A DNA stretch of 64,000 bases from Polaromonas sp. (GCA_031422495.1 JANPLX010000100.1:197-64196), one strand, 5' to 3'; counted from the stretch's first letter, positions 4,005 through 53,396 are shown. Notes: generated by a model from the sequence alone, not told the origin. Made by a program: numbers and translations.

Positions 4005-4068
4005 ATGGATGCAGCCGGCGATTTTATTGTCTAAGTAGCTATAAAAATAATAGCAAAAAACTATAGGA
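4005..4068 (-). repeat. Composite repeat, copy A (GCCGGC core 4013-4029, AT palindrome GCTATAAAAATAATAGC 4038-4054), in the 5' UTR of the dadA-like gene
   Basis: agccggcgattttattgtctaagtagctataaaaataatagc aligns with copy G, tagccggcgtatttattgcctacagcgctattaaaaatatag. Confidence 0.8.
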
Positions 4069-4089
4069 AAAAACAAACGTACGCATGCT

Positions 4090-4338
4090 GCTGTGCCGCT
4101 CCCCCTGTCCTTGGTACCTGAGAGATTCACAGAGAGCCAGTTGGCATTCTGTTTGCTCCTTCGGTGCAAGTCATGCGTTAACACTGATCGGTGATGACGC
4201 TACTTGGCTCTCCAGACGGCTTTTAAAAAGGTGCAGTACATCACCCAAAATTGACGTAGGTCAATTTTATGGATACCTGAGCGTTCATGGGAGTTTGCGC
4301 CTTCGGTGGCATAGTTAGACTATGCTCTCTCCTGCAAA
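4090..4338 (-). promoter_or_regulatory. Tandem glycine riboswitch (two aptamers) on the minus strand, upstream of the dadA-like gene
   Basis: Aptamer 1 (fwd 4271-4338), read on the reverse complement: GCAGGAGAGAGCAUAG-UCUAA-CUAUGC-CACCGAAGGCGCAAAC...CGCUCAGGUAUCC. Aptamer 2 (fwd 4096-4220): GUCUGGAGAGCC...GCACCGAAGGAGCAAAC...AAUCUCUCAGGUACCAAGGACAG. These are the glycine-riboswitch hallmarks: GGAGAG, CACCGAAGG(G/A)GCAA and CUCUCAGG..AAGGACAG. A U-rich tract (fwd 4066-4078) follows. Confidence 0.8.
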
Positions 4339-4384
4339 ATCAATTGTAGTATAAATTTAGACGTTGAAATAATAAACAAAAGGA

Positions 4385-5410
4385 ATGAATATGTTTGAAA
4401 CCGTCATAGCTGGCAGCTTGCCAAAACCCGCTTGGTTGTCTGAAACACAAAAACTCTGGCCACAGTGGAAATCTGAAGGTGCAGAACTGGCTCAAGCCAA
4501 AATAGATGCCACGCTGCTGTGGATCAAAGCGCAAGAAGATGCGGGCCTGGACATCATTGGCGACGGTGAGCAATCACGCCAACACTTCGTACACGGCTTT
4601 TTAGAGCAAGTAGAAGGCATTGATTTTGAGCACAAAGTGACCATGGGCATACGTAACAACCGCTACGACGCCCAAGTGCCACAAGTAGTGTCCGCACTTA
4701 AGCTCAAGGGGCGCGTGCATGAAGTTGAAGCTGGAATTTTGCGTGCGCACACCAAGAAAAAAATCAAATTCACATTGCCTGGCCCAATGACGATTGTGGA
4801 TACGGTTGCCGACAAGTTTTATGGTGACCGTGTGGTCATGGCGATGGCGTTTGCCGATTTGTTGAACCAAGAAGCACGCGCACTGCAAGCGCAAGGCGTG
4901 GACATCATTCAGTTCGATGAGCCAGCGTTTAACGTTTACATGCAAGACGCCGCCGACTGGGGTGTCGCAGCCGTCGAGCGTGCCGCTGCTGGCTTGACAT
5001 GTACAACGGCAGTGCACATTTGCTATGGCTACGGCATCAAAGCCAATGACGATTGGAAAAAAACACTGGGTGATGAGTGGAACCAGTACGAATTGGTACT
5101 ACCCGTTTTGGCTAAAAGCAGCATCAAACAAGTCAGTTTAGAGAGCTACCAGTCGCACGTCCCAGCACATTTGATGGCTTTGCTAGCAGGCAAAGACGTG
5201 ATGGTGGGTGTGATTGATGTTGCCAGTGACACCATTGAAACGCCTGAGCAAATTGCCGACACCATTGGCCGCGCCCTGCAGTTTGTGCCAAAAAACAAGT
5301 TGTTCCCCTGCACCAATTGCGGCTTAGCGCCCATGAGCCGTGAAGTGGCTATCAAAAAGCTTGAGGCTTTGGCGCAAGGTGCTGCTTTGGCGCGAACACG
5401 TTTTGCTTGA
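4385..5410 (+). CDS. Cobalamin-independent methionine synthase family protein (short MetE-like, about 340 aa)
   Basis: The 341-aa ORF reads MFETVIAGSLPKPAWL...GDGEQSRQHFVHGF...IQFDEPAF...CTNCGLAP. The last segment holds the Zn-ligand Cys region typical of the MetE C-terminal catalytic domain family. Confidence 0.8.
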   Translation: MNMFETVIAGSLPKPAWLSETQKLWPQWKSEGAELAQAKIDATLLWIKAQEDAGLDIIGDGEQSRQHFVHGFLEQVEGIDFEHKVTMGIRNNRYDAQVPQVVSALKLKGRVHEVEAGILRAHTKKKIKFTLPGPMTIVDTVADKFYGDRVVMAMAFADLLNQEARALQAQGVDIIQFDEPAFNVYMQDAADWGVAAVERAAAGLTCTTAVHICYGYGIKANDDWKKTLGDEWNQYELVLPVLAKSSIKQVSLESYQSHVPAHLMALLAGKDVMVGVIDVASDTIETPEQIADTIGRALQFVPKNKLFPCTNCGLAPMSREVAIKKLEALAQGAALARTRFA

Positions 5411-5439: not shown

Positions 5440-6597
5440 ATGCACGAAGATAGAAAAGCGCGTTTACTAGCCACTCTGCAACGTGAAATCGACAGTGGTC
5501 GCTTGCCCGGTGCAGTGGTCATGTTGTCACGTCATGGCAAAGTGGAGCTGTTTGAAAGTCTGGGTCAACAAAATCCAAATGACGGTTCAACAATGGCGTT
5601 AGATTCGATCTTTCGCATTTACTCGATGACCAAACCTATCGTCTCTGTCGCCATCATGATGCTGATGGAGCAGGGCAAGCTGTTGCTGAGCGACAATGTG
5701 GGCAAGTATTTGCCGGAATATGCGAAACAACAGCTTACTATTGAGGTTGGCGGCCAGGTGAACTACGTCGCTGTCAAGTCAGCTACGGTGCAAGATTTGC
5801 TACGACATACTGCAGGTTTAACGTATGAATTTTTGGGTAACTCAGCAGCTCAAAAAGCCTACCGCGCTGCCAAAATTAGTATGGCATTGCGTGACTATAG
5901 TAATGCTGAATTTTCTAAGCTCCTAGCCGCGCAACCCCTTCAGTACGAACCTGGCACAATGTGGGAATACAGCCGAGCCACGGATGTTTTGGGCGCATTG
6001 GTTGAAGTTGTTAGCGGGCAAACACTTGGAAGTTTCCTGAACGAGCAAGTTTTCAAGCCGTTAAAAATGCTAGAGACTGCATTTAGTGTGCCCGAAGACA
6101 AACACCACCGCATCGCTGAGCCTTTCACCAAAGACCCAGATGGTGGTATTCAGCTGAAACTGATCAATATCCAAGACCCACCGAAGTTTGAATCGGGCGG
6201 CGGCGGATTAGTGTCTACTGCGCATGACTACGCAAGGTTTTTGCAGTTCATGCTCAACAAAGGTGATCTGGATAGCGTGCGACTTTTGAGTAGTCATACG
6301 GTTGATTTCATGACTGCCGACCATTTGGGCGATTTGCCCATCAGTACCGCTAGCGCAGGCACGCTGTTGCCACCTGGGCATGGTTTTGGCTTAGGCTTTG
6401 CGGTGCGTAAAGAAACGGGCATCTGCACCGTGCTGGGTTCTGCAGGTGTGTACTACTGGGGCGGTATTGCTGGAACGACGTTTTTTGTCGATCCAAAACT
6501 TGATATGTTTGCGATGATGTTGATTCAAGCGCCGAATCAGCGCGATTATTATCGTCCGCTGTTCAGAAACTTGGTTTACGCGGCACTAGAGCCTTAA
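5440..6597 (+). CDS. Serine hydrolase, beta-lactamase/transpeptidase-like family
   Basis: 385 aa with the S-x-x-K motif in IYSMTKPI and class-C-like family architecture. Confidence 0.8.
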   Translation: MHEDRKARLLATLQREIDSGRLPGAVVMLSRHGKVELFESLGQQNPNDGSTMALDSIFRIYSMTKPIVSVAIMMLMEQGKLLLSDNVGKYLPEYAKQQLTIEVGGQVNYVAVKSATVQDLLRHTAGLTYEFLGNSAAQKAYRAAKISMALRDYSNAEFSKLLAAQPLQYEPGTMWEYSRATDVLGALVEVVSGQTLGSFLNEQVFKPLKMLETAFSVPEDKHHRIAEPFTKDPDGGIQLKLINIQDPPKFESGGGGLVSTAHDYARFLQFMLNKGDLDSVRLLSSHTVDFMTADHLGDLPISTASAGTLLPPGHGFGLGFAVRKETGICTVLGSAGVYYWGGIAGTTFFVDPKLDMFAMMLIQAPNQRDYYRPLFRNLVYAALEP

Positions 6598-6662
6598 AAA
6601 TTAGGTAGTTATGGTTCTAGCCGGTGTATTAATTGATTAAGTAGCTATCATAAATATAGCTT
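6597..6662 (-). repeat. Composite repeat, copy B, abutting two convergent stop codons
   Basis: ggttctagccggtgtattaattgattaagtagctatcataaatatagc. Both the core and the AT palindrome are present. Confidence 0.8.
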
Positions 6663-6670: not shown

Positions 6671-7714
6671 CTACTCTTTCGCTACTTGCAGCACCAATTT
6701 ACCAAAGTTACTGCCATTAAAGAGGTTGATTAAAGTCTCTGGGAAGGTGTCCAACCCTACGACCACATCTTCTTTGCTCTTCATGCGACCATCTTTCAAA
6801 TAGCCTGCCATTTCAGCAATTGCCAAGTGGTAACGTGGCGCATAGTCAAACACCACAATGCCTTCCATACGGGCGCGGTTGACCAGCAGGCTGAGGTAGT
6901 TTTTTGGCCCTTGAATAGCCGTTGTGTTGTTGTACTGGCTTATCGCGCCGCATATGATGATGCGTGCTTTCATGTTGATGCGAGTTAGCACGGTGTCCAG
7001 AATTTCGCCTCCGACATTGTCAAAATAAATGTCGACGCCTTTGGGGCAGTGTTCTTTGAGACCGTCTTTGACTGCGCTTGGTCCTGATTTGTAGTCGATG
7101 CAAGCATCAAAACCAAGCTCATTCACCACCCAGTCGCATTTCGCTTTGCCGCCTGCAATGCCGACAACTCGGCAGCCCTTGATTTTGGCCATTTGACCGA
7201 CGGTTTGGCCTACCGCACCCGCTGCGCCTGATACAACAACAGTTTCACCCGCTTTGGGTTGCCCCGCGTCCATCAAGCCAAAATAACCGGTCATGCCAGG
7301 CATGCCCAGAACATTGAGCCATTGGTTAACAGTACCGACGTTTAAGTCGATTTTGACAATACCACTTCGTTTGATTTGATCTGCTGGTACTTGCAAATAT
7401 TCTTGTACGCCCAAGCCAGCGTTGACATAATCGCCCACTGCAAAGTCTTTATTTTTTGAAGCGATGACGCGACCCACACCACCAGCTCGCATGACTTCAC
7501 CAATGCCGACAGGTGGAATGTAACTTTTACCTTCGTTCATCCAACCGCGCATGGCGGGATCGAGTGACAGCGATAAAGTTTTGACTACCACGCCGCCGTC
7601 TTGTGGCTCTGCGATGGCTTCCTGTGTGAAGCTCCAGCCTTCACGGGTGGGCAAGCCTACGGGACGTACAGCTAGGCGAATTTGGTGGTTAACTAGGGTG
7701 CTAATCGTTGACAT
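6671..7714 (-). CDS. NADP-dependent oxidoreductase, medium-chain dehydrogenase family (YncB/CurA-like)
   Basis: 347 aa with the VVVSGAAGAVGQTVGQ Rossmann motif and an overall alkenal/one reductase-like pattern. Confidence 0.8.
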   Translation of the reverse strand: MSTISTLVNHQIRLAVRPVGLPTREGWSFTQEAIAEPQDGGVVVKTLSLSLDPAMRGWMNEGKSYIPPVGIGEVMRAGGVGRVIASKNKDFAVGDYVNAGLGVQEYLQVPADQIKRSGIVKIDLNVGTVNQWLNVLGMPGMTGYFGLMDAGQPKAGETVVVSGAAGAVGQTVGQMAKIKGCRVVGIAGGKAKCDWVVNELGFDACIDYKSGPSAVKDGLKEHCPKGVDIYFDNVGGEILDTVLTRINMKARIIICGAISQYNNTTAIQGPKNYLSLLVNRARMEGIVVFDYAPRYHLAIAEMAGYLKDGRMKSKEDVVVGLDTFPETLINLFNGSNFGKLVLQVAKE

Positions 7715-11413: not shown

Positions 11414-12346
11414 ATGTCATCATTAGTAATCGCCGAACACGACAACGCTAGCATCAAGCCCGCCACTCTTAACACCGTTACTGCTGCATTGCAGTGTGGT
11501 GGTGATGTGCACGTGCTGGTCGCTGGCTCTAACGCAGCCGCTGCCGCTGCAGCCGCCGCACAAATCGCTGGCGTCACCAAAGTATTGCACGCAGACGACG
11601 CTGACTTAGCACATGGCTTGGCAGAAAACGTCGCTGCCCAAGTGTTAGCGGTCGCTTCCAACTACTCTCACATCTTGTTTCCCGCAACGGCCAGCGGCAA
11701 AAACGTCGCGCCTCGCGTGGCTGCCAAATTGGACGTGGGTCAAATCTCTGACATCACCAAAGTTGACAGTCCTGACACATTTGAGCGCCCGATTTATGCA
11801 GGTAATGCGATTGCAACCGTGCAAAGCTTGGATGCCATTAAAGTATTAACCGTTAGAACTACTGGATTCGACCCAGCCGGCGTAAATAATGCCTCAGTAG
11901 CTATTGAAACTGTAGCAATTCAAGCTCCAAGTGCTCAATCTACATTCATGGGCAGCGAGATTGCGAAGAACGACAGACCTGAGCTAACAGCAGCCAAAAT
12001 CATCGTCAGCGGTGGCCGTGCTTTGGGCAGTGCAGAGAAATTCAACGAAGTGATGACCCCACTGGCAGACAAACTGGGTGCAGCCATGGGCGCATCACGA
12101 GCTGCCGTTGATGCCGGTTATGCACCCAACGATTGGCAAGTTGGCCAAACCGGCAAAATTGTTGCCCCACAGTTGTATGTGGCTTGCGGCATCAGCGGCG
12201 CGATTCAGCATTTGGCGGGCATGAAAGACTCCAAAGTCATCGTCGCCATCAACAAAGACGAAGAGGCGCCGATTTTCTCGGTGGCTGACTACGGTCTGGT
12301 GGCAGATTTGTTTACCGCCGTGCCTGAGTTGGTTGCGGCTCTGTAA
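11414..12346 (+). CDS. etfA: Electron transfer flavoprotein alpha subunit
   Basis: 310 aa with C-terminal PQLYVACGISGAIQHLAGMKDSKVIVAINKDEEAPIF. Confidence 0.95.
   Translation: MSSLVIAEHDNASIKPATLNTVTAALQCGGDVHVLVAGSNAAAAAAAAAQIAGVTKVLHADDADLAHGLAENVAAQVLAVASNYSHILFPATASGKNVAPRVAAKLDVGQISDITKVDSPDTFERPIYAGNAIATVQSLDAIKVLTVRTTGFDPAGVNNASVAIETVAIQAPSAQSTFMGSEIAKNDRPELTAAKIIVSGGRALGSAEKFNEVMTPLADKLGAAMGASRAAVDAGYAPNDWQVGQTGKIVAPQLYVACGISGAIQHLAGMKDSKVIVAINKDEEAPIFSVADYGLVADLFTAVPELVAAL
11872..11922 (-). repeat. Composite repeat copy embedded in frame in the etfA inter-domain linker
   Basis: cccagccggcgtaaataatgcctcagtagctattgaaactgtagcaatt versus copy G tctagccggcgtatttattgcctacagcgctattaaaaatatagtaatt. 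This is about 70% identity by eye, with the same spacing between core and palindrome. It encodes ...PAGVNNASVAIETVAI.... Confidence 0.65.
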
Positions 12347-12380: not shown

Positions 12381-14174
12381 ATGACGTACCGCGCCCCTGT
12401 GAAAGACATGCTGTTCAACATGCAGCATTTGGCAAATATTGAACAAGTGGCGCAGTTGCCAGGTTTTGAGGATGCCGGTTTTGACACCGCGCAAGCCGTG
12501 TTGGAAGAATGCGCCAAATTCAGCGAAGGCGTGCTCAGCCCGTTGAATTGGGAAGGTGATAAAAACCCTTCCAGCTGGAAAAATGGTGTCGTCACCTCCA
12601 CTCCGGGTTTCAAAGAGGCCTTCAAGCAATTTGCCGACGGTGGCTGGCAAGGGCTGCAGCATCCGCAAGCTTTTGGCGGTCAAGGTTTGCCGAAAACGAT
12701 TGGCTCTGCTTGCGGCGAAATGCTGAACAGCGCGAACATGAGTTTTGCCCTTTGCCCTTTACTCAGCGACGGCGCGATTGAAGCTTTACTGACTGCAGGT
12801 TCGGACGATTTAAAAGCGATTTATTTAGAAAACTTGGTCAGCGGCAAATGGACAGGCACCATGAACCTGACCGAGCCACAAGCGGGTAGCGATTTAGCCG
12901 CAGTGCGCACCCGTGCCGAACCGCAAGCCGACGGTAGCTACAAAGTATTTGGTACGAAAATCTACATCACCTGGGGTGAGCACGACATGGCCGAAAACAT
13001 CGTCCATTTGGTGCTGGCTCGTGTGGTCGGTGCGCCTGAAGGCGTCAAAGGCATCAGCTTATTTGTGGTGCCGAAATTTATGGTCAACAAAGATGGCTCA
13101 GTAGGCACACGTAATGACGTGCACTGCGTCAGCATCGAGCACAAAATGGGCATCAAAGCCAGCCCGACGGCGGTTTTGCAGTATGGCGATAACGGCGGAG
13201 CGATTGGCTATTTAGTTGGTCAAGAAAACCGTGGCTTGGAATATATGTTCATCATGATGAACGCCGCACGTTTCGGCGTCGGCGTCCAAGGCATCGCGAT
13301 TGCCGAGCGCGCTTACCAAAAAGCCGTGCAATTCGCCAAAGACCGCGTGCAAAGCCGCCCTGTTGATGGCTCTATTGCCGCCAGCGCCCCCATCATTCAC
13401 CACCCAGACGTCAAGCGCATGCTTATGACCATGCGTGCCTACACCGAAGGCTGCCGCGCCATGGCGATCAGCTCAGCCGCCGCCTACGATGCATCACACC
13501 ACCACCCAGATGCAGACGTGCGCAAACAAAACGCTGCGTTTTACGAATTCATGGTGCCGCTCATCAAAGGTTACAGTACCGAAATGAGTTTGGAAGTTGC
13601 CAGCCTGGGCGTGCAAGTGCACGGTGGCATGGGCTTTATCGAAGAAACCGGCGCAGCGCAGTATTACCGTGATGCGAAGATTTTGACGATTTACGAAGGC
13701 ACAACCGCCATTCAAGCGAACGACTTGGTAGGCCGCAAAACCGCCCGAGACGGCGGTCAAACTGCCAAAGGTATCGCTGCGCAAATTGAAGTGACAGAAG
13801 CAGAATTGGTTCTAAGCGGCAGTATAGAAGCAAAAGCGGTATTGAAACACCTCACTGCAGCGCGTTTGGCGTTCATCGATGTGGTGAACTTCGTCGCTGG
13901 AAATACCAAGGCTTCGCCCAATGCGGTGTTTTCAGGCAGCGTTCCTTACCTCATGCTCGCTGGTAACTTGATGGCTGGTTGGCAATTAGGTCGCAGTCTG
14001 CTGGTTGCAGAAGCTCAACTTGCTGCTGGCGGCGAAGACGCCGCTTTCATGAATGCCAAAATCATCACTGCTCAGTTTTACGCTGAGCACCTGTTGTGCA
14101 GAGTACCAAGTATGCGCGGAAGTATTGTGGATGGCGCAACGTCTGTGACAGCGATGGCTTTAGAGTCGTTCTAA
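12381..14174 (+). CDS. Acyl-CoA dehydrogenase, long (about 600 aa) form
   Basis: 597 aa. Acyl-CoA dehydrogenase (ACAD) N-terminal, middle and C-terminal motifs are present (TEPQAGSD, GGMGFIEETGAAQYYRDAKILTIYEGTT), plus a C-terminal extension. It lies directly downstream of etfBA. Confidence 0.9.
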   Translation: MTYRAPVKDMLFNMQHLANIEQVAQLPGFEDAGFDTAQAVLEECAKFSEGVLSPLNWEGDKNPSSWKNGVVTSTPGFKEAFKQFADGGWQGLQHPQAFGGQGLPKTIGSACGEMLNSANMSFALCPLLSDGAIEALLTAGSDDLKAIYLENLVSGKWTGTMNLTEPQAGSDLAAVRTRAEPQADGSYKVFGTKIYITWGEHDMAENIVHLVLARVVGAPEGVKGISLFVVPKFMVNKDGSVGTRNDVHCVSIEHKMGIKASPTAVLQYGDNGGAIGYLVGQENRGLEYMFIMMNAARFGVGVQGIAIAERAYQKAVQFAKDRVQSRPVDGSIAASAPIIHHPDVKRMLMTMRAYTEGCRAMAISSAAAYDASHHHPDADVRKQNAAFYEFMVPLIKGYSTEMSLEVASLGVQVHGGMGFIEETGAAQYYRDAKILTIYEGTTAIQANDLVGRKTARDGGQTAKGIAAQIEVTEAELVLSGSIEAKAVLKHLTAARLAFIDVVNFVAGNTKASPNAVFSGSVPYLMLAGNLMAGWQLGRSLLVAEAQLAAGGEDAAFMNAKIITAQFYAEHLLCRVPSMRGSIVDGATSVTAMALESF

Positions 14175-33628: not shown

Positions 33629-33635
33629 ATTAAAA

Positions 33636-44477: not shown

Positions 44478-45089
44478 ATGTCAGCTGATTTTGCACCAAT
44501 TAACCTCACCCACCATTTCTTGATCGCCATGCCGGGTCTTGAGGACGACGGTTTTGCCAGATCGGTGGTGTATTTATGCGAGCATAGTAAGCGTGGCGCC
44601 TTGGGTTTGGTGATCAATAAGCCTAGCGAATTAAATCTAAAAAATTTGTTTGATAAAGTTGACTTGCCCATGCCACGGCAAGATCTGACAACTGCAGTCG
44701 TCTTCCACGGTGGCCCGGTTCAGACTGAGCGTGGTTTTGTGCTCCATGAAGCCATGCATGGCACGCCTTCTGCCGGTGATACGCCCTCTGAAAAATCGGT
44801 TTATGCGTCAACCATGACCATTCCTGGCGGGCTAGAAATGACCACCTCGCGCGATGTTTTAGAAGCCATATCTACTGGTTCAGGCCCGAGCCGCGTTTTG
44901 GTGTCGCTTGGCTATTCCTCATGGGGCAAGGGTCAGCTTGAATCTGAATTGGCTGGCAACAGCTGGCTGACCGTCGCTGCAGACCTCAATGTCATTTTCG
45001 ACACGCCGATTGAGCAGCGTTATGACAAAGCCCTGAAGCTTCTGGGCATTGAGGCATGGATGTTGTCGCCAGTGGCGGGCAGAGCGTGA
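44478..45089 (+). CDS. yqgE: YqgE/AlgH family protein (UPF0301)
   Basis: LTHHFLIAMPGLEDDGFARSVVYLCEHSKRGALGLVINKP is the family hallmark. Confidence 0.85.
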   Translation: MSADFAPINLTHHFLIAMPGLEDDGFARSVVYLCEHSKRGALGLVINKPSELNLKNLFDKVDLPMPRQDLTTAVVFHGGPVQTERGFVLHEAMHGTPSAGDTPSEKSVYASTMTIPGGLEMTTSRDVLEAISTGSGPSRVLVSLGYSSWGKGQLESELAGNSWLTVAADLNVIFDTPIEQRYDKALKLLGIEAWMLSPVAGRA

Positions 45090-45094
45090 GCTCC

Positions 45095-45523
45095 ATGTCT
45101 GCCGCTTCCCCACCTTCAAGCCCACTTACCGTCCCTGCGCATTGCCAGTCATTTTTAGCGTTTGATTTCGGGCTCAAACGCACAGGCGCCGCTGTTGGTA
45201 ATCGCCTCATGCGTACAGCGCAAGGATTAGTCACTATCAAAGCAGAAGGCGATGCTCGCTGGCCTCTCATAGCAGATCGCATCAAAGAGTGGCAGCCTGA
45301 TGCTATAGTGATCGGCGTTCCCTACTACCAAGACGGTGCTGCGCACGATAATACCAGACGAGCAAAAAAATTTGGTCGACAATTGCATGCAAGGTACAAC
45401 TTGCCAGTTTTTGAAGTAGATGAGCGGTATAGCACCACAGAAGCACTAGAAATGGGTGCCAAGGACCCAGATGCTGGTGCAGCCTGTATCATCCTAGAGC
45501 AGTTTTTAAGGAGTTTGCCTTGA
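45095..45523 (+). CDS. ruvX: Holliday-junction resolvase-like nuclease RuvX (YqgF)
   Basis: FLAFDFGLKRTGAAVGN motif. The internal start MSAASPP avoids overlap with yqgE (the ORF track starts at 45056). Confidence 0.8.
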   Translation: MSAASPPSSPLTVPAHCQSFLAFDFGLKRTGAAVGNRLMRTAQGLVTIKAEGDARWPLIADRIKEWQPDAIVIGVPYYQDGAAHDNTRRAKKFGRQLHARYNLPVFEVDERYSTTEALEMGAKDPDAGAACIILEQFLRSLP

Positions 45524-46056
45524 CATCACCGACTTCGCCTTCTGTGGGAACTCTGGCCTTAGACGCCGAGGCCATGTACCAAGATTTGCTTCGCTATGTG
45601 CAGCAAATTCATGCACCAACTATGCAGTTGGTCGGTATTACCTCTGGCGGAGCTTGGTTGGTCGAGCGCTTACATCGCGATTTGAAGTTAACAGGCAAAC
45701 CAGGCATCATTTCCTCGACCTTGCACCGCGACGATTTTTCAAAACGCGGCTTAAGTGATGGCGGTCAGACGACGCTGCCATTTGATGTCGAAGGCGCAGA
45801 TATTTTGTTGGTTGACGACGTGCTGTTCACCGGTCGAACTATACGCGCAGTGGTCAACGAACTCTTCGATTACGGTCGCCCACTCCGAGTGCAACTTGCC
45901 GTTTTGGTGGACAGAGGTGGTCGTGAACTACCTATCCATGCCGAGTATGCCTCAGCTCGTTTATTCTTACCTACTAATCAATCACTCACCTTGGCCCGCA
46001 GCGAAGCTGGAACATTCAGCTTTGAAGTCAGAGAACGCTTGAACACTAAAAAATAA
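45520..46056 (+). CDS. pyrR: PyrR: bifunctional pyr regulator / uracil phosphoribosyltransferase
   Basis: 178 aa with the PRPP-binding loop ILLVDDVLFTGRTIRA. Confidence 0.85.
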   Translation: MTSPTSPSVGTLALDAEAMYQDLLRYVQQIHAPTMQLVGITSGGAWLVERLHRDLKLTGKPGIISSTLHRDDFSKRGLSDGGQTTLPFDVEGADILLVDDVLFTGRTIRAVVNELFDYGRPLRVQLAVLVDRGGRELPIHAEYASARLFLPTNQSLTLARSEAGTFSFEVRERLNTKK

Positions 46057-46085
46057 AACTAAAAAATAAAACTAAAAATACAATA
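46045..46085 (+). repeat. AT-rich 13-bp tandem repeat spanning the pyrR stop and the pyrB leader
   Basis: actaaaaaataaa / actaaaaaataaa / actaaaaatacaa.... Confidence 0.7.
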
Positions 46086-46090
46086 AAAAT

Positions 46091-47053
46091 ATGCTCTACA
46101 AACGCAACCCCCAACTAAATAAAAACGGTGAACTCATCCACTTGCTGTCGATTGAGGGATTGCCCAAAGCAACGCTGACGCATATTTTAGACACCGCAGC
46201 CAACTTCGTTTCAGTCAACGACCGCGAAGTTAAAAAAGTCCCGCTCTTACGCGGTAAAAGTGTTTTTAACCTGTTCTTTGAAAACTCCACCCGCACCCGC
46301 ACGACTTTTGAGATTGCCGCCAAGCGCCTCAGCGCCGACGTCATCAACCTCGACATCGCACGCTCATCTGCCTCCAAAGGCGAGTCCCTGCTAGACACCA
46401 TTGCCAACCTCAGCGCCATGGCTGCTGATTTGTTTGTGGTGCGTCACAGCGAATCCGGCGCTCCTTATTTGATCGCCCAGCATGTCGCGCCGCACGTGCA
46501 TGTGATTAACGCTGGAGATGGCAGACATTCGCACCCGACGCAGGGTTTGCTGGACATGTTCACCATTCGGCACTACAAAAAAGACTTTTCTAACCTTACC
46601 GTCGCCATCGTAGGCGACGTATTACATTCGCGTGTTGCTCGGTCAGATATTCATGCTTTAACAACGCTGGGCTGCGCCGAAGTGCGCGTGGTTGGCCCCA
46701 AAACCTTGGTTCCTAGCGACATGGCGCAAATGGGTGTTCGCGTCTGCCACACCTTGGAAGAGGGCATCAAAGACTGCGACGTCGTCATCACTTTGCGCTT
46801 GCAAAGCGAGCGTATGACGGGAGCGCTGCTGCCCAGTAGCCAAGAATTCTTCAAAAGCTACGGCCTGACGCAAGACAAACTGCAGCTCGCCAAGCCAGAC
46901 GCCATCGTCATGCACCCAGGGCCGATCAACCGGGGCGTCGAAATCGACTCTGCCGTGGTTGACGGCCAGCAAAGCGTGATCTTGCCGCAAGTGACCTTCG
47001 GCATCGCTGTGCGCATGGCGGTGATGAGTATCGTTGCCGGTAATGACGCCTAG
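46091..47053 (+). CDS. pyrB: Aspartate carbamoyltransferase catalytic subunit
   Basis: 320 aa with [17 protein letters not shown] and HPGP motifs. Confidence 0.95.
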
Positions 47054-47098
47054 ACAGATGCTTAAAAAATATAAAAAGACGCATAAAAAAGAGAAGCT

Positions 47099-48406
47099 AT
47101 GAATATCCTCATTAAAAATGGCCGAGTCATCAATCCAGCCACAGGATTTGATGAAATATGTGACATAGCCGTTGAATCACCTCATGTTATAGCTATTAAA
47201 AATATAGCGAAAAACTTCACACCTGATACAACGATTGACGCCACAGGCTGCATCGTCACTGCTGGTTTTGTTGATTTGGCGGCACGTTTACGCGAGCCTG
47301 GCCATGAGCACGAGGGCATGCTGCAAAGTGAGCTGGCCGCTGCAGTGGCTGGTGGTGTGACTAGTTTGGTTTGCATGCCAGACACTGAGCCGGTATTGGA
47401 CGAGCCCGGTTTGATCGAAATGCTCAAATTCCGCGCTGAAAAGCAGCACCAATCGCGTGTTTTCCCGCTAGGTGCGCTCACTGTGAATCTCAAAGGCGAA
47501 GTGTTGACCGAGATGGTCGAGTTGTCCGAAGCCGGCTGCGTGGGCTTTAGCCAAGCAGAAGTTCCTTTAGAAAACACCCAAGTGCTACAGCGCGCTTTGC
47601 AATACGCCAGCACCTTTGGCTACACCGTGTGGCTGCGCCCGCAAGACATCCATTTGGGCAAAGGCGTCGCTGCCAGCGGCGCTTTGGCTACGCGGATGGG
47701 TTTAAGTGGTGTTCCCGTCGCGGCAGAAACAATTGCGTTGCACACGATTTTTGAGTTGATGAAAGCGACCACAGGCTCCCGCGTGCATATTTGCCGCATC
47801 AGCAGCGCTGCAGGCGTGGCACTCGTGCGTCAAGCCAAGGCAGATGGCTTGTTGGTCAGCTGCGATGTGAGTATTAACTCACTTCATTTGACTGACATCG
47901 ATATGGGCTACTACGACAGCCGCGCTAGGCTCAACCCACCCCTGCGCCAGCAGCGCGACCGCGATGCCCTGCGTGCGGCCTTGGTTGACGGCACGATTGA
48001 CGCCTTGGTATCCGACCACACGCCGGTTAGCGACGACGCCAAAACCTTACCTTTCGCCGAAGCCGAAGCCGGTGCTACTGGTTTGGAGTTGCTGCTCAGC
48101 CTCGCCCTCAAATGGCAGTCAGAAAGCAGCGACAAAACGCTGACTTTGGCCAATGCACTCGCCACCATCACCAGCCAACCTGCCAAAATATTGGAGGCCA
48201 ATTTGGGCGCTGAGTACGCCAGCTTGGGCCAATTGGTTGTGGGCGGCGTTGCCGACATTTGCATTTTCGACCCCAAAGCGGCTTGGACTGTTTCCTCAAG
48301 CAGCTTGCGCAGCCAAGGCAAACACACGCCATTCGTGAGCTACGAGCTGCCCGGCAAAGTGGTGGCCACCATCGTGGCTGGGCATGTGGCTTTTGAAGCG
48401 AAGTAA
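47099..48406 (+). CDS. Dihydroorotase-like protein (PyrC'/PyrX type, partner of PyrB)
   Basis: 435 aa. It is a dihydroorotase (DHOase)-family fold directly after pyrB. The first metal motif reads GFVDLAARL instead of the usual HxH, as in non-catalytic PyrC'. Confidence 0.8.
   Translation: MNILIKNGRVINPATGFDEICDIAVESPHVIAIKNIAKNFTPDTTIDATGCIVTAGFVDLAARLREPGHEHEGMLQSELAAAVAGGVTSLVCMPDTEPVLDEPGLIEMLKFRAEKQHQSRVFPLGALTVNLKGEVLTEMVELSEAGCVGFSQAEVPLENTQVLQRALQYASTFGYTVWLRPQDIHLGKGVAASGALATRMGLSGVPVAAETIALHTIFELMKATTGSRVHICRISSAAGVALVRQAKADGLLVSCDVSINSLHLTDIDMGYYDSRARLNPPLRQQRDRDALRAALVDGTIDALVSDHTPVSDDAKTLPFAEAEAGATGLELLLSLALKWQSESSDKTLTLANALATITSQPAKILEANLGAEYASLGQLVVGGVADICIFDPKAAWTVSSSSLRSQGKHTPFVSYELPGKVVATIVAGHVAFEAK
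47164..47209 (-). repeat. Composite repeat copy in frame near the pyrC' N-terminus
   Basis: catagccgttgaatcacctcatgttataGCTATTAAAAATATAGcg. It has 16 nt identical to copy G, and ctcatgt plus the core remnant align with copy J. It encodes ...IAVESPHVIAIKNIAK.... Confidence 0.65.
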
Positions 48407-48450
48407 GTCATTTCTGGTACTTAACTTGCCGATATTGCTTGAAAGTATTG

Positions 48451-49185
48451 ATGTCTCAACTGCGCGCCTTCGGTAAATTGTGCTTATTCATTCCTCATCT
48501 TGTGTGGGGAATTTTCAGTATTTACGTCATATTTCCCAAGTTAAATCAAACTCAAAAAAACAAACGGATTGAGGCTTGGGCCGGTGCATTGCTTGCCAAG
48601 CTTGCTATTAAATTAGTAGTAAAAGGCAACCCACCCACCACAGGCCCGGTACTTTTGGTCTCTAACCATATTTCGTGGCTAGATATCTTGGTCATGCATG
48701 CGTCTAAACATTGCCGCTTCGTCAGCAAAGCAGACGTCAAGCATTGGCCCATTTTGGGTGCCTTGGCGACTGGTGCTGGCACCTTGTACATAGAGCGCGA
48801 GTCTAGGCGCGATGCCATGCGAGTCGTGCATCACATGTGCGAGGCCTTGCAAAATGGCGAGATTTTGGCAGTTTTTCCAGAGGGGACAACGGGCAATGGC
48901 ATTGAGATGCTCCCCTTTCACGCCAACTTGCTGCAAGCCCCCATCGTCTGCAACATACCCGTTCAGCCACTGGCGTTGCGCTATTTAGACCCCCAATCCG
49001 GCCAAACCAGCCAAGCTATGAGCTACGTGGGCGATGAAAGCCTGCTTGACTCGTTGTGGCGAACTTTGAAAGCCAAAGGCGTGATAGCCCAAGTTACCTA
49101 CGGCGAACCCCAATCGTCAAATGACCGAACCCGCAGAATGTGGTCGGATGATTTGAGGGGGGAGATTGAGCGCCTTAAAGCTTAA
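48451..49185 (+). CDS. plsC: 1-acyl-sn-glycerol-3-phosphate (lysophospholipid) acyltransferase
   Basis: NHISWLD (Hx4D) and FPEGTT motifs. The ORF track starts at TTG 48439. Confidence 0.85.
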   Translation: MSQLRAFGKLCLFIPHLVWGIFSIYVIFPKLNQTQKNKRIEAWAGALLAKLAIKLVVKGNPPTTGPVLLVSNHISWLDILVMHASKHCRFVSKADVKHWPILGALATGAGTLYIERESRRDAMRVVHHMCEALQNGEILAVFPEGTTGNGIEMLPFHANLLQAPIVCNIPVQPLALRYLDPQSGQTSQAMSYVGDESLLDSLWRTLKAKGVIAQVTYGEPQSSNDRTRRMWSDDLRGEIERLKA

Positions 49186-49202: not shown

Positions 49203-49267
49203 ATTTTTAGGTGTTTTTAGGCTCTAGTCGGCGTATTCATTGCTCATGTAGCTATTTTTTTTATAGC
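49203..49267 (-). repeat. Composite repeat, copy J
   Basis: tttttaggCTCTAGTCGGCGTATTCATTGCtcatgtaGCTATTTTTTTTATAGC. Confidence 0.8.
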
Positions 49268-49297
49268 ATTTTGTGTGTAAAATGTTCGGGTGAGACA

Positions 49298-50086
49298 TCA
49301 CTTCTTTAGCCTTCGGAGCATGGTAGCCGCTGACTCGGAGGGCTTGCAATTCAAGGTGGTCTCGTACTCGACAAGCAATTGACGGATTGCGTGCTCAATC
49401 GCTACAGCACCAAGTCGCTTTGCGTTCAATTCCGTGACCATGATTGCCCGATACACATAGGTGATGAGTTGATTCTGCCACTCTTTAATGCGCGGTGTAC
49501 CGAGCATTCCTGTCATGTGGTATCTCGGAGTAAATCCGCCGTAGAGTTCCATGATGTGAGGGTAGGCTCCGTGAACATAGCCAGAGAAGGCCTTGTGGAC
49601 CGTCTCCAATGTGCCCTGCGCATCGTGCGGATTGAGCTGATCCTTCGAGAGTTTGCCAAATGCCGCGTTGATTTTGCGACGGGGAACCATGTCGCGGTTT
49701 TGAGCGGAACTAAGCAGATCGTTCGGGTTCTCGAATTCTTCTTTGAAGAAATCTTTGAGCATTTTGATCTGGTCCTTGCTCGGACCAGTCTGTTCGACTG
49801 GACCCATGAAGAACAAGATTTCATAAATGAAGTCATCGGCCATTCGACAGAGTGCGCCGATTTCCTGCGTGTATCCAGCTCGCAGTAATACCAAGGCTGC
49901 ATTTAGCGTACTGACCAGTTTTACACCTTTGAGATAGCAGAAGAGTACGTCTGATTGTTCTAGGTGTCGGTAGTACATAAAATCGCCGATCTGAACGCGT
50001 ACCGGTTGAGGCACGAATGAAGACAATGAGTTGTAGTTCGCATTGAGCTTGCGCAAGGCTTCAGTGAGGTATTCGGTGGGTTCCAT
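49298..50086 (-). CDS. Hypothetical protein, predicted all-helical, no recognisable family
   Basis: Clean 262-aa ORF (MEPTEYLTEALRKLNANYNS...). By eye its Leu codon usage is CTC-rich, where neighbours prefer TTG/CTG. It is flanked by repeat copies on both sides. Confidence 0.6.
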   Translation of the reverse strand: MEPTEYLTEALRKLNANYNSLSSFVPQPVRVQIGDFMYYRHLEQSDVLFCYLKGVKLVSTLNAALVLLRAGYTQEIGALCRMADDFIYEILFFMGPVEQTGPSKDQIKMLKDFFKEEFENPNDLLSSAQNRDMVPRRKINAAFGKLSKDQLNPHDAQGTLETVHKAFSGYVHGAYPHIMELYGGFTPRYHMTGMLGTPRIKEWQNQLITYVYRAIMVTELNAKRLGAVAIEHAIRQLLVEYETTLNCKPSESAATMLRRLKK

Positions 50087-50194: not shown

Positions 50195-50337
50195 CAGCAA
50201 TAGGTAGTGTTTTTACTTGCCGCATAAGTTAAACGCGGGTTGTCACGGGTAAGCCATTTTTAGACAAATACCATAGCACTAAAGCCAACAAACACGCCGG
50301 CTAGAGTGTAATTTAGAGGGTCAAAAACCCTAAAACT
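50195..50337 (+). repeat. Degenerate composite-repeat copies K0 and K1
   Basis: K0: ctatagcttagagcagcaataggtag...cgcataagttaa. K1: aaagCCAACAAACACGCCGGCTAGAGtgtaATTTAGAGGGtcaaaaaCCCTAAAAc. Confidence 0.6.
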
Positions 50338-50352
50338 GGACTTCGCCATTTT

Positions 50353-50422
50353 GCTATCAAATAAATAGCGAATTAGGCAATAAATACGCCGGCTAGAGCC
50401 ATATTTAGTCCCTAAAAAGACG
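50353..50422 (+). repeat. Composite repeat, copy K2, ending at the ABC ATPase stop codon
   Basis: GCTATCAAATAAATAGCgaattaGGCAATAAATACGCCGGCTAGAGCCatatttagtCCCTAAAAAgacg. Confidence 0.85.
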
Positions 50423-50423
50423 T

Positions 50424-51563
50424 TTAAACCGTTTTTTCCCGCTCAAACGTCACCACATGGTCCACTTCTGCGCGTATGCCTATCCATTCGCCTAACTGGT
50501 GGTCGTGGTGGCTGGGGACGTGGGCTACGACGGTTTCGCCGGTTTTTAGTTTGAGGGTGTAGAGGAATTCTGAGCCGCGAAAGGCTTTTCTGATGATTTG
50601 CGCTTTGGTGGGGGCGTTGTCGTCGTGGACGATGTCGTCTGCGCGTAGCAGCACGTCGCATTCACCGACGGGCAGGGCTTCTAGCACGGCGGGGCTGATG
50701 TCGTGGAGTTCGCCTAAGGGGGTGACGACGTGTTTGTGCAAGCCGATGCCGGTTTTTCGATGATTTTCATGATTTTCATGATTTCCATGATTTTCATGTC
50801 CACCATGCTCATCATGCAGCTCAACCGTAGCTTTAGAAAACACGCCATGCCCAATGAAATCGGCCACAAACCGCGTGGCGGGGCGGTGGTAGAGGGTGTA
50901 GGCGTCGGCCCATTGGTGCAGCTTGCCTTCATGCATCACGCCGATCAGGTCGCCTATGGCAAAGGCTTCGAGCTGATCGTGGGTGACAAACAGGGCGGTG
51001 GCATTGGCTTTTTTCAAGATGGCGCGTAGCTCATGGGCCAGGCGCTCGCGCAGGTCAACGTCAAGGTTCGAAAACGGCTCATCAAGCAACAAAAGCTGCG
51101 GCTTGGGTGCCAGAGCGCGGGCGAGGGCGACGCGCTGCTGTTGGCCGCCTGAGAGCTCGTGCGGGTAGCGTTTACCAGCATCGGGCAAATCGACCAAAGC
51201 CAGCACCTCGGCAACTCGCGCCATGCGCTGGTCTTTTGGCAGGTGGTGGATGCCAAACGCCACGTTGTGCGCCACGTCCATGTGCGGGAATAGGGCGTAA
51301 TCTTGAAACACCATACCGATGCGGCGTGATTCGGGCGCTAGGTGAACTGTTTCGCTGCTAACAATCGTTTTAGAGAGCAATACTGTCCCAGCGGATGCCC
51401 GCTCTAAGCCCGCTACGGCGCGCAACAACGTGGTTTTGCCGCAGCCAGAAGGGCCGATGAGTACGCCAATGTCGCCAGCGCGCAGGCCAAAGCTGACGCC
51501 GCCAACGGCTTCGGTCGTGCTGTTGCCGTAGCTCACATGAAGGTTTTTGACTTCTAAAAACAT
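50424..51563 (-). CDS. ABC transporter ATP-binding protein (FbpC/PotA-like, Fe3+ or polyamine type) with a His-rich insertion
   Basis: Walker A GPSGCGKTT, LSGGQQQRVALARAL, Walker B LLLDEP, and a C-terminal regulatory domain. Start MFLEVKNLHVSYG (51563) is preferred over the ORF-track start 51668. Confidence 0.85.
   Translation of the reverse strand: MFLEVKNLHVSYGNSTTEAVGGVSFGLRAGDIGVLIGPSGCGKTTLLRAVAGLERASAGTVLLSKTIVSSETVHLAPESRRIGMVFQDYALFPHMDVAHNVAFGIHHLPKDQRMARVAEVLALVDLPDAGKRYPHELSGGQQQRVALARALAPKPQLLLLDEPFSNLDVDLRERLAHELRAILKKANATALFVTHDQLEAFAIGDLIGVMHEGKLHQWADAYTLYHRPATRFVADFIGHGVFSKATVELHDEHGGHENHGNHENHENHRKTGIGLHKHVVTPLGELHDISPAVLEALPVGECDVLLRADDIVHDDNAPTKAQIIRKAFRGSEFLYTLKLKTGETVVAHVPSHHDHQLGEWIGIRAEVDHVVTFEREKTV
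50761..50814 (-). repeat. Coding 9-bp tandem repeat giving a His-rich (HEN)n loop
   Basis: tgattttca x2, tgatttcca, tgattttca, then the degenerate units tgtccacca and tgctcatca. The minus-strand translation is ...HDEHGGHENHGNHENHENH.... Confidence 0.85.
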
Positions 51564-51643
51564 AATGGCAATATCTTGTAGCGGTAATGAAAGCCGGTTT
51601 GTAAATTGAATTTGTAAATGCGTACAATTCTCATTTAGATTGT

Positions 51644-53323
51644 ATGCTGACACAAAAATCCCTATCAAACCCCGACTTTAGCCTGACCAAACGCACCAAG
51701 AGGGGACGTTTTGCCCTCCGTGTCTTGCTGTGCGCGTTCGCCTTGGTGCTGTTGTTGCCTATTTTGGCGGTCATCGCGTCGGTGCTGCAGTGGAATGGGG
51801 AATCCGCGCAAATCCTGCGGGAAATGAGCCAAACCGTGCTGCCAGATTACGCCATAACCTCGCTGATGTTGTGCATCTTGGTGGCGATAGGCGTGGCGGT
51901 GGTTGGCATGGCGACGGCAATTGCAGTCACCTTGTTTGAGTTCGCCGGCCGCAAAACGTTTGAGTGGGCGCTGTTATTGCCCATCGCCATGCCCGCCTAC
52001 GTGGTGGCGTATGCCTATACCGACTTTTTGCAGTTCAGTGGCCCAGCGCAGGGCTGGATTCGTGGTGCTTTTGGCTTAGAAGGGCGCGTGTTACCAGAAA
52101 TTCGCAGCGTTTGGGGGGCGGCCTGGGTGTTCACGTTTTGCCTTTATCCCTATGTGTATTTGCTGGCTCGCACCGCCTTGGCAGAGCGCGCCACGCATTT
52201 GATGGACGCTGCTCGTCTGTTGGGCGCGCCGCTGCGCCGCCGCATCAAAGAAATCGCTTTGCCATTGGCGCGCCCCGCAGTGGCAGCTGGCATCGCCTTG
52301 GCACTGATGGAAACATTGGCAGATTTTGGCGTCTCCAGCTACTTTGGTATCCAAACTTTCACAGCAGGTATTTATAAAGCTTGGTTGGTGTTAGACAGCC
52401 GCATCGCAGCCGCACAACTTGCCACGCTGTTGCTAATTACGGTAGTGTTGCTCTTAAAAATAGAGCGAAAAGCGCAAAAGAAGATGCGATTTTCAGCCGC
52501 CAAAGGTGCTAACCAAGCCCATAAATCCCAAACAGCGGAAAAATTGCAAGGCAAACAGCTCGCCGTCGCATGGCTGGTCTGCATCACGCCGATTTTGATG
52601 GGTTTTGTGTTGCCGCTGCTGTTCATCTTGCGTCCGTTTTTAGCAGCGTTGCGGGCTAACAATGTTCTGCTGCCGTGGGCACAATTTGGTCAATGGGCGG
52701 CGAACAGCCTGTTTTTGGGCGTAGTTAGTGCCGTTTTGGCGGTGGCATTCGCATTAGTCATCGCCTTTGCTATGCGCACCCGGCCTGATAGGTTGACGCA
52801 CTTTGTGGGTAACTTGGCTGGGCTAGGGTATGCCATTCCCGGCGCAGTGATTGTCGTTGGTTTGCTTATCCCAGTCGGTTGGATACAGTCAAAATGGCCT
52901 CAAGCCGGCGTAGGATATTGGGTAACTGCTACAGTTTTAGGAGTAATTTGGGCTTACGTTGTACGCTTTAGCGGCGTGGCGTTGCAATCGGTGCAAAGCG
53001 GTTACGCGAAGATTCCAAGCAGTTTTGACGATTCTGCCCGCATGCTGGGCACGAACGGCTTGAACTTGCTGCGCCGCGTGCATTTGCCCTTGCTCAAGCG
53101 CTCCACAGCGGCGGCGGCATTGTTGGTATTTGTCGATGTGATGAAAGAGCTACCCGCCACGCTGGTGCTGCGTCCTTTCAACATGGACACCTTAGCTGTC
53201 GTCACCTACCAGCTAGCTCGGGATGAACGCTTGGGCGAGGCAGCGTTGCCCGCTTTGGCGTTGGTTTTGGTGGGATTATTGCCGGTTTTGTTACTTAGCC
53301 GAACATTGCGTTCAGCTAAATAA
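51644..53323 (+). CDS. Iron(III)-type ABC transporter permease (two fused permease domains, FbpB-like)
   Basis: 559 aa, about 12 TM segments, with two EAA-like loops (AARLLGAPLRRRIKEIALPLARP and SARMLGTNGLNLLRRVHLPLLKRS). Confidence 0.8.
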   Translation: MLTQKSLSNPDFSLTKRTKRGRFALRVLLCAFALVLLLPILAVIASVLQWNGESAQILREMSQTVLPDYAITSLMLCILVAIGVAVVGMATAIAVTLFEFAGRKTFEWALLLPIAMPAYVVAYAYTDFLQFSGPAQGWIRGAFGLEGRVLPEIRSVWGAAWVFTFCLYPYVYLLARTALAERATHLMDAARLLGAPLRRRIKEIALPLARPAVAAGIALALMETLADFGVSSYFGIQTFTAGIYKAWLVLDSRIAAAQLATLLLITVVLLLKIERKAQKKMRFSAAKGANQAHKSQTAEKLQGKQLAVAWLVCITPILMGFVLPLLFILRPFLAALRANNVLLPWAQFGQWAANSLFLGVVSAVLAVAFALVIAFAMRTRPDRLTHFVGNLAGLGYAIPGAVIVVGLLIPVGWIQSKWPQAGVGYWVTATVLGVIWAYVVRFSGVALQSVQSGYAKIPSSFDDSARMLGTNGLNLLRRVHLPLLKRSTAAAALLVFVDVMKELPATLVLRPFNMDTLAVVTYQLARDERLGEAALPALALVLVGLLPVLLLSRTLRSAK

Positions 53324-53324
53324 T

Positions 53325-53396
53325 GCTATATATTTAATAGCTGGATAGGCAATAAATACGCCGAATAGCGATATTTGCCTCTAATTTGGTCCCTCG
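53325..53396 (+). repeat. Composite repeat, copy L, starting 2 nt after the permease stop
   Basis: GCTATATATTTAATAGCtggataGGCAATAAATACGCCGAATAGCGatatttgcctctaatttggtCCCTcgac. Confidence 0.85.

Follow-up and report, generated by a model that had tools for sequence, protein, structure and literature searches.

We characterized a short dispersed repeat in a 64,000-nt stretch of Polaromonas sp. DNA (GCA_031422495.1, JANPLX010000100.1:197-64196; hereafter the window, meaning the whole stretch analyzed). The repeat is about 75 bp long and lies mostly between genes, and it also occurs inside genes, where its copies range from full in-frame insertions to replacements of equal length. An earlier note on this DNA had described a modular repeat dispersed in both orientations, and this description held up, far above chance. 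The 22-mer core GCAATAAATACGCCGGCTAGAG had eight matches in the window at up to three mismatches, with 0.00 expected from 100 shuffles, and GCTAT-N7-ATAGC, the consensus form of a palindrome that we call P1, had 13 matches at up to one mismatch against 1.38 expected. A repeat search of the window recovered both orientations as families of 52-55 nt. With a profile hidden Markov model (nhmmer) built from 121 copies of other genomes, there were 13 matches in the window at the cut-off of E < 0.01, 10 of them below 1e-8, and taking the window as the sole database added two further weak matches (26365-26415 and 52884-52950). The window total is thus 10 strong and about five weak copies, a density of about one per 4 kb, in agreement with the 15 or so sites first counted over 53 kb.

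The copies and fragments in the window are given below with their strands and, unless another search is named, their nhmmer E-values.

3981-4059, minus strand: copy (E = 1e-9) in the 5' untranslated region (UTR) of a DAO-family oxidoreductase gene (2726-3991, minus)
6590-6662, minus strand: copy (E = 7e-9) filling a convergent intergenic region
11875-11924, minus strand: 45-nt core module (E = 2.9e-5) inside etfA (11414-12346), encoding PAGVNNASVAIETVA
14191-14272, plus strand: copy (E = 2.5e-17) between an acyl-CoA dehydrogenase (ACAD) gene (12381-14174) and an NMO gene (14294-15259)
26365-26415, plus strand: weak core-only copy (E = 0.0015, window alone) inside an xdhA-like open reading frame (ORF), with an exact AATACGCCGGCTA
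28279-28358, plus strand: copy (E = 2e-14) inside an xdhB-like ORF (26478-28985), encoding AIKFIAGQAINTPAMSKNDTKN
29387-29467, plus strand: copy (E = 5e-12) inside an xdhC-like ORF (29065-29964), in frame and between the protein's two halves
29945-30024, minus strand: copy (E = 1.3e-15) overlapping the xdhC stop codon and preceding a methyltransferase gene (30020-30661)
31325-31390, plus strand: intergenic copy (E = 9e-12)
47192-47208: solitary perfect P1 palindrome, GCTATTAAAAATATAGC (pattern search), inside ORF 47099-48406
48590-48625, minus strand: weak partial copy (E = 0.0065) inside an acyltransferase ORF (48439-49185)
49204-49271, minus strand: copy (E = 9e-9) in the convergent intergenic region between 48439-49185 and 49298-50086
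50265-50329, plus strand: degenerate first unit of a direct doublet (E = 2.7e-6)
50346-50428, plus strand: second unit of the doublet and best copy in the window (E = 1e-18), overlapping the stop codon of an ABC ATPase gene (50424-51668, minus)
52884-52950, minus strand: weak copy (E = 0.011, window alone) inside an ABC permease ORF (51644-53323)
53319-53391, plus strand: copy (E = 7e-12) beginning 1 nt past the permease stop codon, the last before the GC-rich segment

Several details of the first description change with the profile. Where three tandem copies had been placed at 50195-50422 it gives two, and an eroded trace at 58250-58291 finds no profile support. The repeat is indeed missing from the GC-rich segment beyond 53.4 kb, with zero copies by profile search from there to 64 kb. 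The copy near 4005, which had been placed beside a stop codon, in fact adjoins a start codon and lies in a 5' UTR, after a glycine riboswitch. Most copies are intergenic as stated, but five to six of those in the window lie inside ORFs, as does about a quarter of the family. The solitary P1 at 47192-47208 is possibly a chance occurrence or a remnant.

Architecture of the repeat

In alignments of 121-151 copies, the conserved unit is a 45-bp left module and the right ~30 bp are loose, which makes the element asymmetric. Conservation begins at aaTTT, continues through P1, a 17-bp AT-centred palindrome of the form (G/A)CTA(T/C)-W7-ATAGC, and after a free spacer of ~7 nt takes in the block TTAGGCAATAAATACGCCGGCTA, in consensus notation the asymmetric (T)TAGGCAATAAATACGCCGGCTA. 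In the right part it fades into GAGGCATATTTA..CCTCTAAAAT, with indels. The element is AT-rich overall apart from one GC core. The 9- to 13-mers of the core are found almost exclusively within full elements, and the copies are mostly single or direct doublets, with no inverted doublets.

Such a repeat might work in RNA, as a transcript-end hairpin, terminator, stabilizer, or small regulatory RNA. Copies do lie close to stop codons, one sits in a riboswitch-controlled 5' UTR whose layout is conserved, and 11 of 151 have complementary runs of at least 8 nt. However, P1 variants are left unpaired without compensation (68 A-C and 48 C-A mismatches vs 6 C-G), and RNAalifold on 151 intergenic copies returned no consensus structure on either strand. 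A long second hairpin (TTAGGCAATAAATACGCC / GGCGTATTTATTGCCTAA) was persuasive in single folds but is barely above shuffled controls over the same 151 copies, with a mean longest complementary run of 5.5 nt vs 4.5 nt in the shuffles. By these three measures, the two small hairpins first drawn for the repeat lack covariation support. The accompanying statement that the copies are not classical terminators is confirmed by the terminator scans, in which one of nine scanned window copies was flagged and the totals were nine found vs 5.2 expected, and seven vs 8.9; no T tract follows the copies. Rfam gave only the glycine riboswitch at gathering score in the window, and four copies gave nothing at E ≤ 1, so that the failure to recognize a named family stands as far as RNA families go. 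Copies in tandem intergenic regions show no orientation bias (37 co-oriented, or sense, and 44 opposed, or antisense), and many copies lie inside ORFs on either strand. We regard an RNA-level role as very improbable. Because there is no orientation bias, no compensation in P1, no RNAalifold structure, no more than a marginal hairpin, and no Rfam match, we propose that the module acts at the level of DNA.

A sigma-54/sigma-70 promoter on the reverse strand, suggested by eye, was also considered and was rejected because copies are depleted from divergent intergenic regions and the promoter scan flagged one copy.

Occurrence in related genomes

A taxonomic scan with one genome per species and the exact 17-mer AATAAATACGCCGGCTA found at least 111 loci, and more than 30 Polaromonas and related Comamonadaceae genomes carry the module. 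Nearly all of the loci listed belong to metagenome-assembled genomes (MAGs) that bear the labels Polaromonas, Variovorax, Rhodoferax, Brachymonas, Ca. Aalborgiella or Burkholderiaceae, many of them from glacier-fed streams; a handful of further listed matches have no palindrome and are apparent chance matches. The window itself fits best as part of a Polaromonas-like genome of low GC (about 50%). A scan of other genomes had been proposed as the test of the repeat, and it turned up many more copies. The same core was found in loci not selected for it (L112, L113, and L118; L numbers denote loci outside the window). Among unselected loci, L118 (53% GC) carries 4-5 copies in 17 kb, L113 carries four in 12.7 kb, and L116 and L117 carry one each. 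L114 (62% GC) and Rhodoferax L119 (65% GC) had no significant copy, with weak P1-like matches in L114 (E ~0.001-0.01).

The core consensus is identical in all lineages, and the spacer and loop show lineage-typical variants, such as ACTATTGAAT in CBDUEA and JAYVSU and CACTCCGCGCAAT in bins labelled 'Variovorax'. A search of a plasmid collection gave no full copy. The megaplasmid CP087967 of Polaromonas sp. P1-6 (L120 19995-20027) has a solitary P1 followed by TTAGGC (TGCTATAAATTTAATAGCTTATTAGGC) some 25 nt upstream of the start of a gene, the remainder of the module being absent; P1 may therefore exist also as an independent site. We found no published description of the present consensus or of its behavior in genes, and the 75-bp repeat is essentially undescribed before.

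Placement and retention of copies

We counted contexts from crude ORF calls on the window and the 111 loci. The 210 matches at E ≤ 1e-6 comprised 47 in convergent, 81 in tandem, and 9 in divergent intergenic regions, 45 inside ORFs, and 28 that were unclassifiable because they lay near a contig end. Occupancy was 45% for convergent regions (47/105), 19% for tandem (81/429), and 8% for divergent (9/108), absolute values that are inflated by the choice of loci while the ratios between region types are not. Gene ends face the element 186 times and gene starts 113 times. The claim that almost all copies begin within a few nucleotides of a stop codon is right as a tendency, but the distances are mostly 0-50 nt, on either side, with no fixed offset.

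Orthologous copies are the rule. All four window copies between 3.9 and 14.3 kb are present in L118, and all window copies except the one in xdhB are common to L118, L033, L049 or L089. The copy at 6590-6662 has orthologues in L089 and L118, that at 14191-14272 in L116, L117 and L118, and that in xdhC (29387-29467) in L033; the doublet, as a unit of ~190 nt, is kept in L049 and present twice there. At the 53319 site, gene content differs in L049. Window and L118 agree at only 59-63% of third codon positions, and neither the intergenic flanks nor the right part of the element can be aligned, while in the three intergenic copies common to both, P1 and the left block are preserved to about the same degree as the glycine riboswitch aptamers nearby. 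The same pattern, with the core kept, recurs in 13 other orthologous sets. Intergenic copies are additions relative to the outgroup: the ACAD-NMO region measures 111-119 nt in four genomes that have the copy and 29 nt in Rhodoferax L119, which lacks it, a difference of ~85 nt.

These observations bear on whether the repeat is a MITE (miniature inverted-repeat transposable element), that is, a deleted insertion sequence (IS) derivative moved in trans by an IS transposase. Size, abundance, intergenic insertion relative to the outgroup, one full in-frame insertion (in L014, below), and local duplications of gene-plus-element units would all fit. Against this stand the asymmetry of the element and the lack of terminal inverted repeats or of flanking or target-site duplications in the 121-151 aligned copies. 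An all-against-all comparison of ~0.9 Mb revealed no longer parent element and only the local gene-plus-element duplications. Copies are moreover stable between species at near-saturated synonymous divergence, and some of those in ORFs are replacements. A MITE is accordingly improbable; of the two identities named at the outset as ones that would undo the repeat's separate status, the ~0.9 Mb compared gives no sign of an IS end, and by inspection it is not an integron attC site.

Copies inside genes

Of 242 matches, 63 (about a quarter) fall in stop-free frames of at least 600 nt, some of which may be 5' extensions and not true coding sequence. One reading frame is strongly preferred, giving ..IA.QAINTPA.. 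in the sense direction (TAG -> CAG) and AGVFIA..AI..IA in the antisense direction. We compared seven in-ORF copies with solved structures.

EtfA (window): net gain of 0 residues; gap-free alignment to 1efp and 1efv
S-adenosylmethionine (SAM) methyltransferase (L023/L105): net gain of 0 residues, motif I to post-I; gap-free against 9rfr across the whole copy
XdhB (window): +8 amino acids (aa); alignment to 1jro_B
ValRS (L012): +11 aa; structure comparison
AroA (L056): +13 aa; structure comparison
Atm1-type ABC exporter (L014): about +28 aa; extra residues exactly at the copy, a full in-frame insertion
XdhC (window): uninformative as to insertion or replacement, the structure alignment not spanning the segment of the copy

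In XdhB, P1 overlies the native ..VIFDAGQ.. segment, and in AroA P1 and the block overlie ASYFLAAGAIKGG. Equal-length replacement in ORFs is the most unusual property of the family, and ordinary mobile elements do not do so. Rickettsia palindromic elements (RPE) are insertions that lengthen the protein. Like RPE, copies of the present family sit in frame within genes of functional proteins, in tolerant segments at the protein surface, and favor one frame. Lengthening of the RPE type is seen in the L014 exporter and partly in AroA, ValRS and XdhB, and amounts to 0 aa in EtfA and the SAM methyltransferase. The present family differs from RPE in that the net gain lies between +28 aa and 0 and native residues are overlaid, in its mostly intergenic copies, in its unrelated host lineages, and in dissimilar sequences.

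EtfA gives the clearest series. Its closest matches to the window protein, 99% identical, are from metagenome bins, and 101 of 120 close homologues have 310 aa, like the window protein, the rest having 311-317 aa. Across these 120 the linker reads AAATGGSAAVE or AGVNNASVAIE, and few sequences fall between these two states. In the DNA, the difference is a stretch of ~45 nt that corresponds exactly to P1, the spacer and the left block and has the same length either way. In L117, etfA has just a P1-like palindrome at the module site, a possible intermediate state. In many EtfA lineages, the in-ORF copies have decayed in the GCCGGC core.

The L033 orthologue, whose flanks are 87% identical, lacks the xdhB copy, which is near-perfect in the window. 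At that place (L033 1335-1488, corresponding to window 28274-28370), the xdhB loop holds a different, GC-rich perfect palindromic repeat, CCGTTCGTCCTGAGCCTGTCGAAGGGC...CTTCGACAGGCTCAGTCCGAACGG, translated ..VRPEPVEGL..; the same XdhB loop accepts two unrelated repeats.

Two results concern whether such matches could arise through the protein. The real in-ORF copies in etfA, xdhB and xdhC outscore all 1000 synonymous recodings, and protein sequence therefore does not explain the DNA match. In addition, etfA (window 11879-11906) and an unrelated 1064-aa ORF (L067 576-603) contain an identical 28-nt variant, AGCTACTGAGGCATTATTTACGCCGGCT, encoding AGVNNASVA in both, which points to copying and not to convergence. 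The L067 ORF has an NPPY methylase-like motif nearby.

Equal-length copies in tolerant protein segments with a strong frame preference could also be expected of a self-recognition motif that builds up in situ through some biased process, either as an uptake sequence favored in natural transformation or as the selected site of a chromosome-organizing protein. The uptake signal sequences (USS) of Pasteurellaceae and the DNA uptake sequences (DUS) of Neisseria consist of a short core at about one per kb, which also stands alone. As with USS and DUS, the present motif is common to related species, occurs in both orientations, enters ORFs without length change, and is lacking in apparently foreign DNA, here the GC-rich and probably acquired segment; partial forms exist as well (solitary P1, solitary core, and the P1-only state of etfA in L117). 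However, at ~1 per 4 kb it is four times sparser, its conserved 45 bp are four to five times longer and far beyond known uptake signals, and there is no abundant free short core. Intergenic copies are additions of ~85 nt, the xdhB copy is complete between its 87%-identical flanks, the GCCGGC core decays in EtfA, and the window copies are clustered and not evenly spaced. We give this explanation little credence.

The question of a mobilizing enzyme

Repetitive extragenic palindromic (REP) sequences and their mosaic elements (BIME) in enterobacteria and pseudomonads comprise hundreds of short non-coding intergenic copies at 3' ends and between convergent genes, and are thought to be protein-binding sites. 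The present repeat resembles them in being short, dispersed and intergenic, in lying at 3' ends and between convergent genes, in lacking coding capacity, and in its orthologous retention; high copy number, extragenic position and placement at gene 3' ends are all found here. It differs in having no supported hairpin or inverted pairs, in its AT-rich composition and long asymmetric conserved block, and in the quarter of its copies that lie inside ORFs, some as equal-length replacements.

We asked whether it could be a classical REP/REPIN, a hairpin substrate moved as single-stranded DNA by a once-per-genome REP-associated tyrosine transposase (RAYT). Its copy number, location, persistence, and lack of an internal transposase are of the REP/BIME kind, and related genomes encode a candidate, although the window itself has no transposase or RAYT gene, as the earlier note had observed. 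This Y1_Tnp gene was found in L097 (1711-2433), confirmed with Pfam, and followed into four more loci (L112-L115). It is a single gene in the fixed synteny aroK-aroB-HD-DUF1415-methyltransferase-RAYT-gltB, 72-85% identical across Polaromonas and Rhodoferax, and NCBI names the protein of related genomes 'REP-associated tyrosine transposase'. In L113, both intergenic regions adjoining the gene carry a copy of the repeat.

Nevertheless, the L113 copies are direct and not inverted, and what brackets the gene in L113-L115 is an inverted repeat of its own, GGGTCAGATTCCAATT, of which the window has no copy. The gene is also present in L114, the 62% GC Polaromonas locus in which no significant copy was found, and so does not co-vary with the element. 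By the usual criterion, being flanked by its own repeat and present in a copy-free locus, Y1_Tnp is not the cognate enzyme, and we rejected it as such; the analogy with REP and RAYT fails at this bracketing, although a second RAYT may lie elsewhere in these genomes. The gene looks like a domesticated transposase, present as a single copy and with a low-copy repeat of its own. Since P1 also lacks covariation, copies are mostly single, and peel-and-paste transposition does not predict equal-length replacement in ORFs, the REP/REPIN explanation is unlikely.

Relation to other repeats of the group

Two families have been described from the same genus or its relatives. A 2017 motif survey of P. naphthalenivorans CJ2 reported ATAGCT(N)22CAAAAG in 125 copies, 101 of them intergenic and 18 in genes, with 34 between convergent genes and a position near gene ends, its function left open by the authors (PMC5217627). 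That motif starts with the right half of P1 (ATAGC), but in the present family CAAAA stands 29-30 nt, not 22 nt, after ATAGCN, and exact ATAGCT(N)22CAAAAG is absent from the window and all 111 loci. It may be a sister family. The betaproteobacterial repeat element (BRE), of ~90 bp, occurs in Polaromonas sp. JS666 and other Comamonadaceae, mostly in intergenic positions with some copies in coding sequences, and is 69% GC and often in tandem arrays (PMC3110155). With its AT-rich composition and single GC core, the present element is set apart from BRE as it is described in print, and the two are probably unrelated.

Surroundings of individual copies

A tandem glycine riboswitch with two aptamers (53 and 40 bits; window 4095-4344, minus strand) lies upstream of the DAO-family FAD oxidoreductase gene. 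The copy at 3981-4059 sits between aptamer 2 and the ATG, a layout that is kept in L118, and takes up the expected position of the expression platform. The copy at 6590-6662 is flanked by a beta-lactamase-family gene (5440-6597) and an ADH-family gene (6671-7714), and the copy at 31325-31390 lies between the start of a ProQ-family gene (30665-31318, minus) and the end of an aminotransferase gene (31412-32725, minus). On the reverse strand, the copy at 29945-30024 presents TTGCCT-16-TATAGT (window 29989-30016), which is promoter-like and aimed at the methyltransferase gene starting near 30020-30047; other copies carry TATAGC where this one has TATAGT, and the promoter scan left them unflagged.

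The 17 kb from 31400 to 48500 contain no strong copy. ORFs of 131, 121, 178, 758 and 2005 aa at 43-46% GC (33153-42965) look, by size and order alone, like a pilG/H/I/J-chpA chemosensory cluster. The segment 53400-64000 has 57-61% GC vs ~50% elsewhere and encodes DUF305, a heavy-metal P-type ATPase (YHS and HMBD domains), YdjM, a GSDH-like protein, CtaG and COX2; it has the look of acquired metal-resistance DNA.

Small gene cassettes adjoin copies at two places. In L033, the orthologue of the copy at 29945-30024 is parted from xdhC by a toxin-antitoxin cassette, a RelE/HigB-like pair with an antitoxin (L033 3050-3670), which directly adjoins the repeat. In L049 (700-2665), two direct copies (81% identical) of the 190-nt doublet enclose a BrnT/BrnA-like cassette together with the gene of a small lipoprotein. 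A site-specific recombination site for the capture of such cassettes, in the manner of attC, dif or NIME/dRS3, would account for both, and P1 is shaped like a recombinase core, with two half-sites around an AT-rich spacer. Integron attC sites have RYYYAAC...GTTRRRY boxes and form cassette arrays beside intI; the present consensus has neither box, and its copies are scattered among housekeeping genes. The neisserial intergenic mosaic elements (NIME) with dRS3 repeats resemble the present family in form: a short palindrome, its half-sites fixed and its spacer free, stands beside longer repeat blocks downstream of genes, and they are associated with the insertion of foreign cassettes. There is no sequence similarity to them, however, and no sign here of a dedicated integrase or phage integration. 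The two cases are anecdotes with no array and no integrase nearby, and because 45% of convergent intergenic regions are occupied, adjacency to cassettes is expected by chance. We hold a recombination site to be very unlikely indeed.

Proposed mode of action and spread

On the scattered loci studied, each of the readings as RAYT substrate, MITE, uptake sequence, RNA element or recombination site falls short in one test or more. The reading that we favor, tentatively and with somewhat less than even confidence, is a REP-like module that is read at the DNA level by a conserved protein and is spread by templated copy-and-replace as well as by insertion. Anatomy, distribution, retention at orthologous sites, the lack of an RNA-type structure and the span from insertion to replacement in genes are observed directly; the protein factor and the copy-and-replace mechanism are what we infer from them. 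The 45-bp module would act on double-stranded DNA, not as RNA, as the recognition site of a putative conserved trans-acting protein. New copies would arise by templated copying from existing ones, with outcomes from pure addition (intergenic, or in frame with ~28 aa) to equal-length overwriting of a module-like target. The latter would resemble gene conversion or template switching, seeded by chance similarity. Copies would then survive where they do least harm, past stop codons and especially between convergent genes, or in tolerant protein loops and linkers.

Several points weigh against this proposal. The data beyond the window are ~0.9 Mb of scattered loci, most of them fetched via the exact 17-mer, so that the conservation of the core is partly inflated. 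No trans-acting protein or mobilizing enzyme for the repeat was identified in the loci studied, no event with clean junctions was caught, and no clean filled-vs-empty intergenic pair was found among close relatives. Equal-length replacement could also have come about if alleles that originated gradually elsewhere were brought in by homologous recombination. The test for homogenization within genomes gave 83 own-genome vs 73 partner-genome states at diagnostic columns, which is not significant, and recurrent gene conversion is therefore not demonstrated. Concerted evolution had seemed attractive, as genome-specific variants are visible and two orthologous pairs carry their own genome's variant, and it was set aside on that overall count.

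A more specific version of the proposal, which we consider doubtful, is a dedicated copy-and-replace system. In it, a putative nuclease or recombinase would act at P1-like palindromes, and repair templated by an existing copy would overwrite the target with the 45-bp module, sometimes adding the rest of the element beyond it. If true, a dispersed bacterial repeat would be spreading by neither cut-and-paste nor copy-and-paste, and would in doing so routinely rewrite short in-frame stretches of essential proteins (EtfA, AroA, ValRS, XdhB).

Short dispersed repeats are common in bacteria, and few of them have a known mode of spread or a known reader. With a conserved unit as long as the present one, defined by primary sequence, a protein that binds it should be easy to isolate. 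Copies inside enzymes give dated, alignable before and after states, as in the EtfA linkers and in the xdhB copy, which one of two close genomes has and the other lacks. The family is a marker of a cold-environment Polaromonas clade, in which the repeat may fragment metagenome assemblies and, because copies without a stop codon can extend ORFs, could mislead gene callers. If replacement by templated overwriting is true, tolerant segments of proteins can be recoded, with no indels, by a DNA motif that is selfish or used by the host, and these bacteria would offer a natural system for ectopic short-patch conversion.

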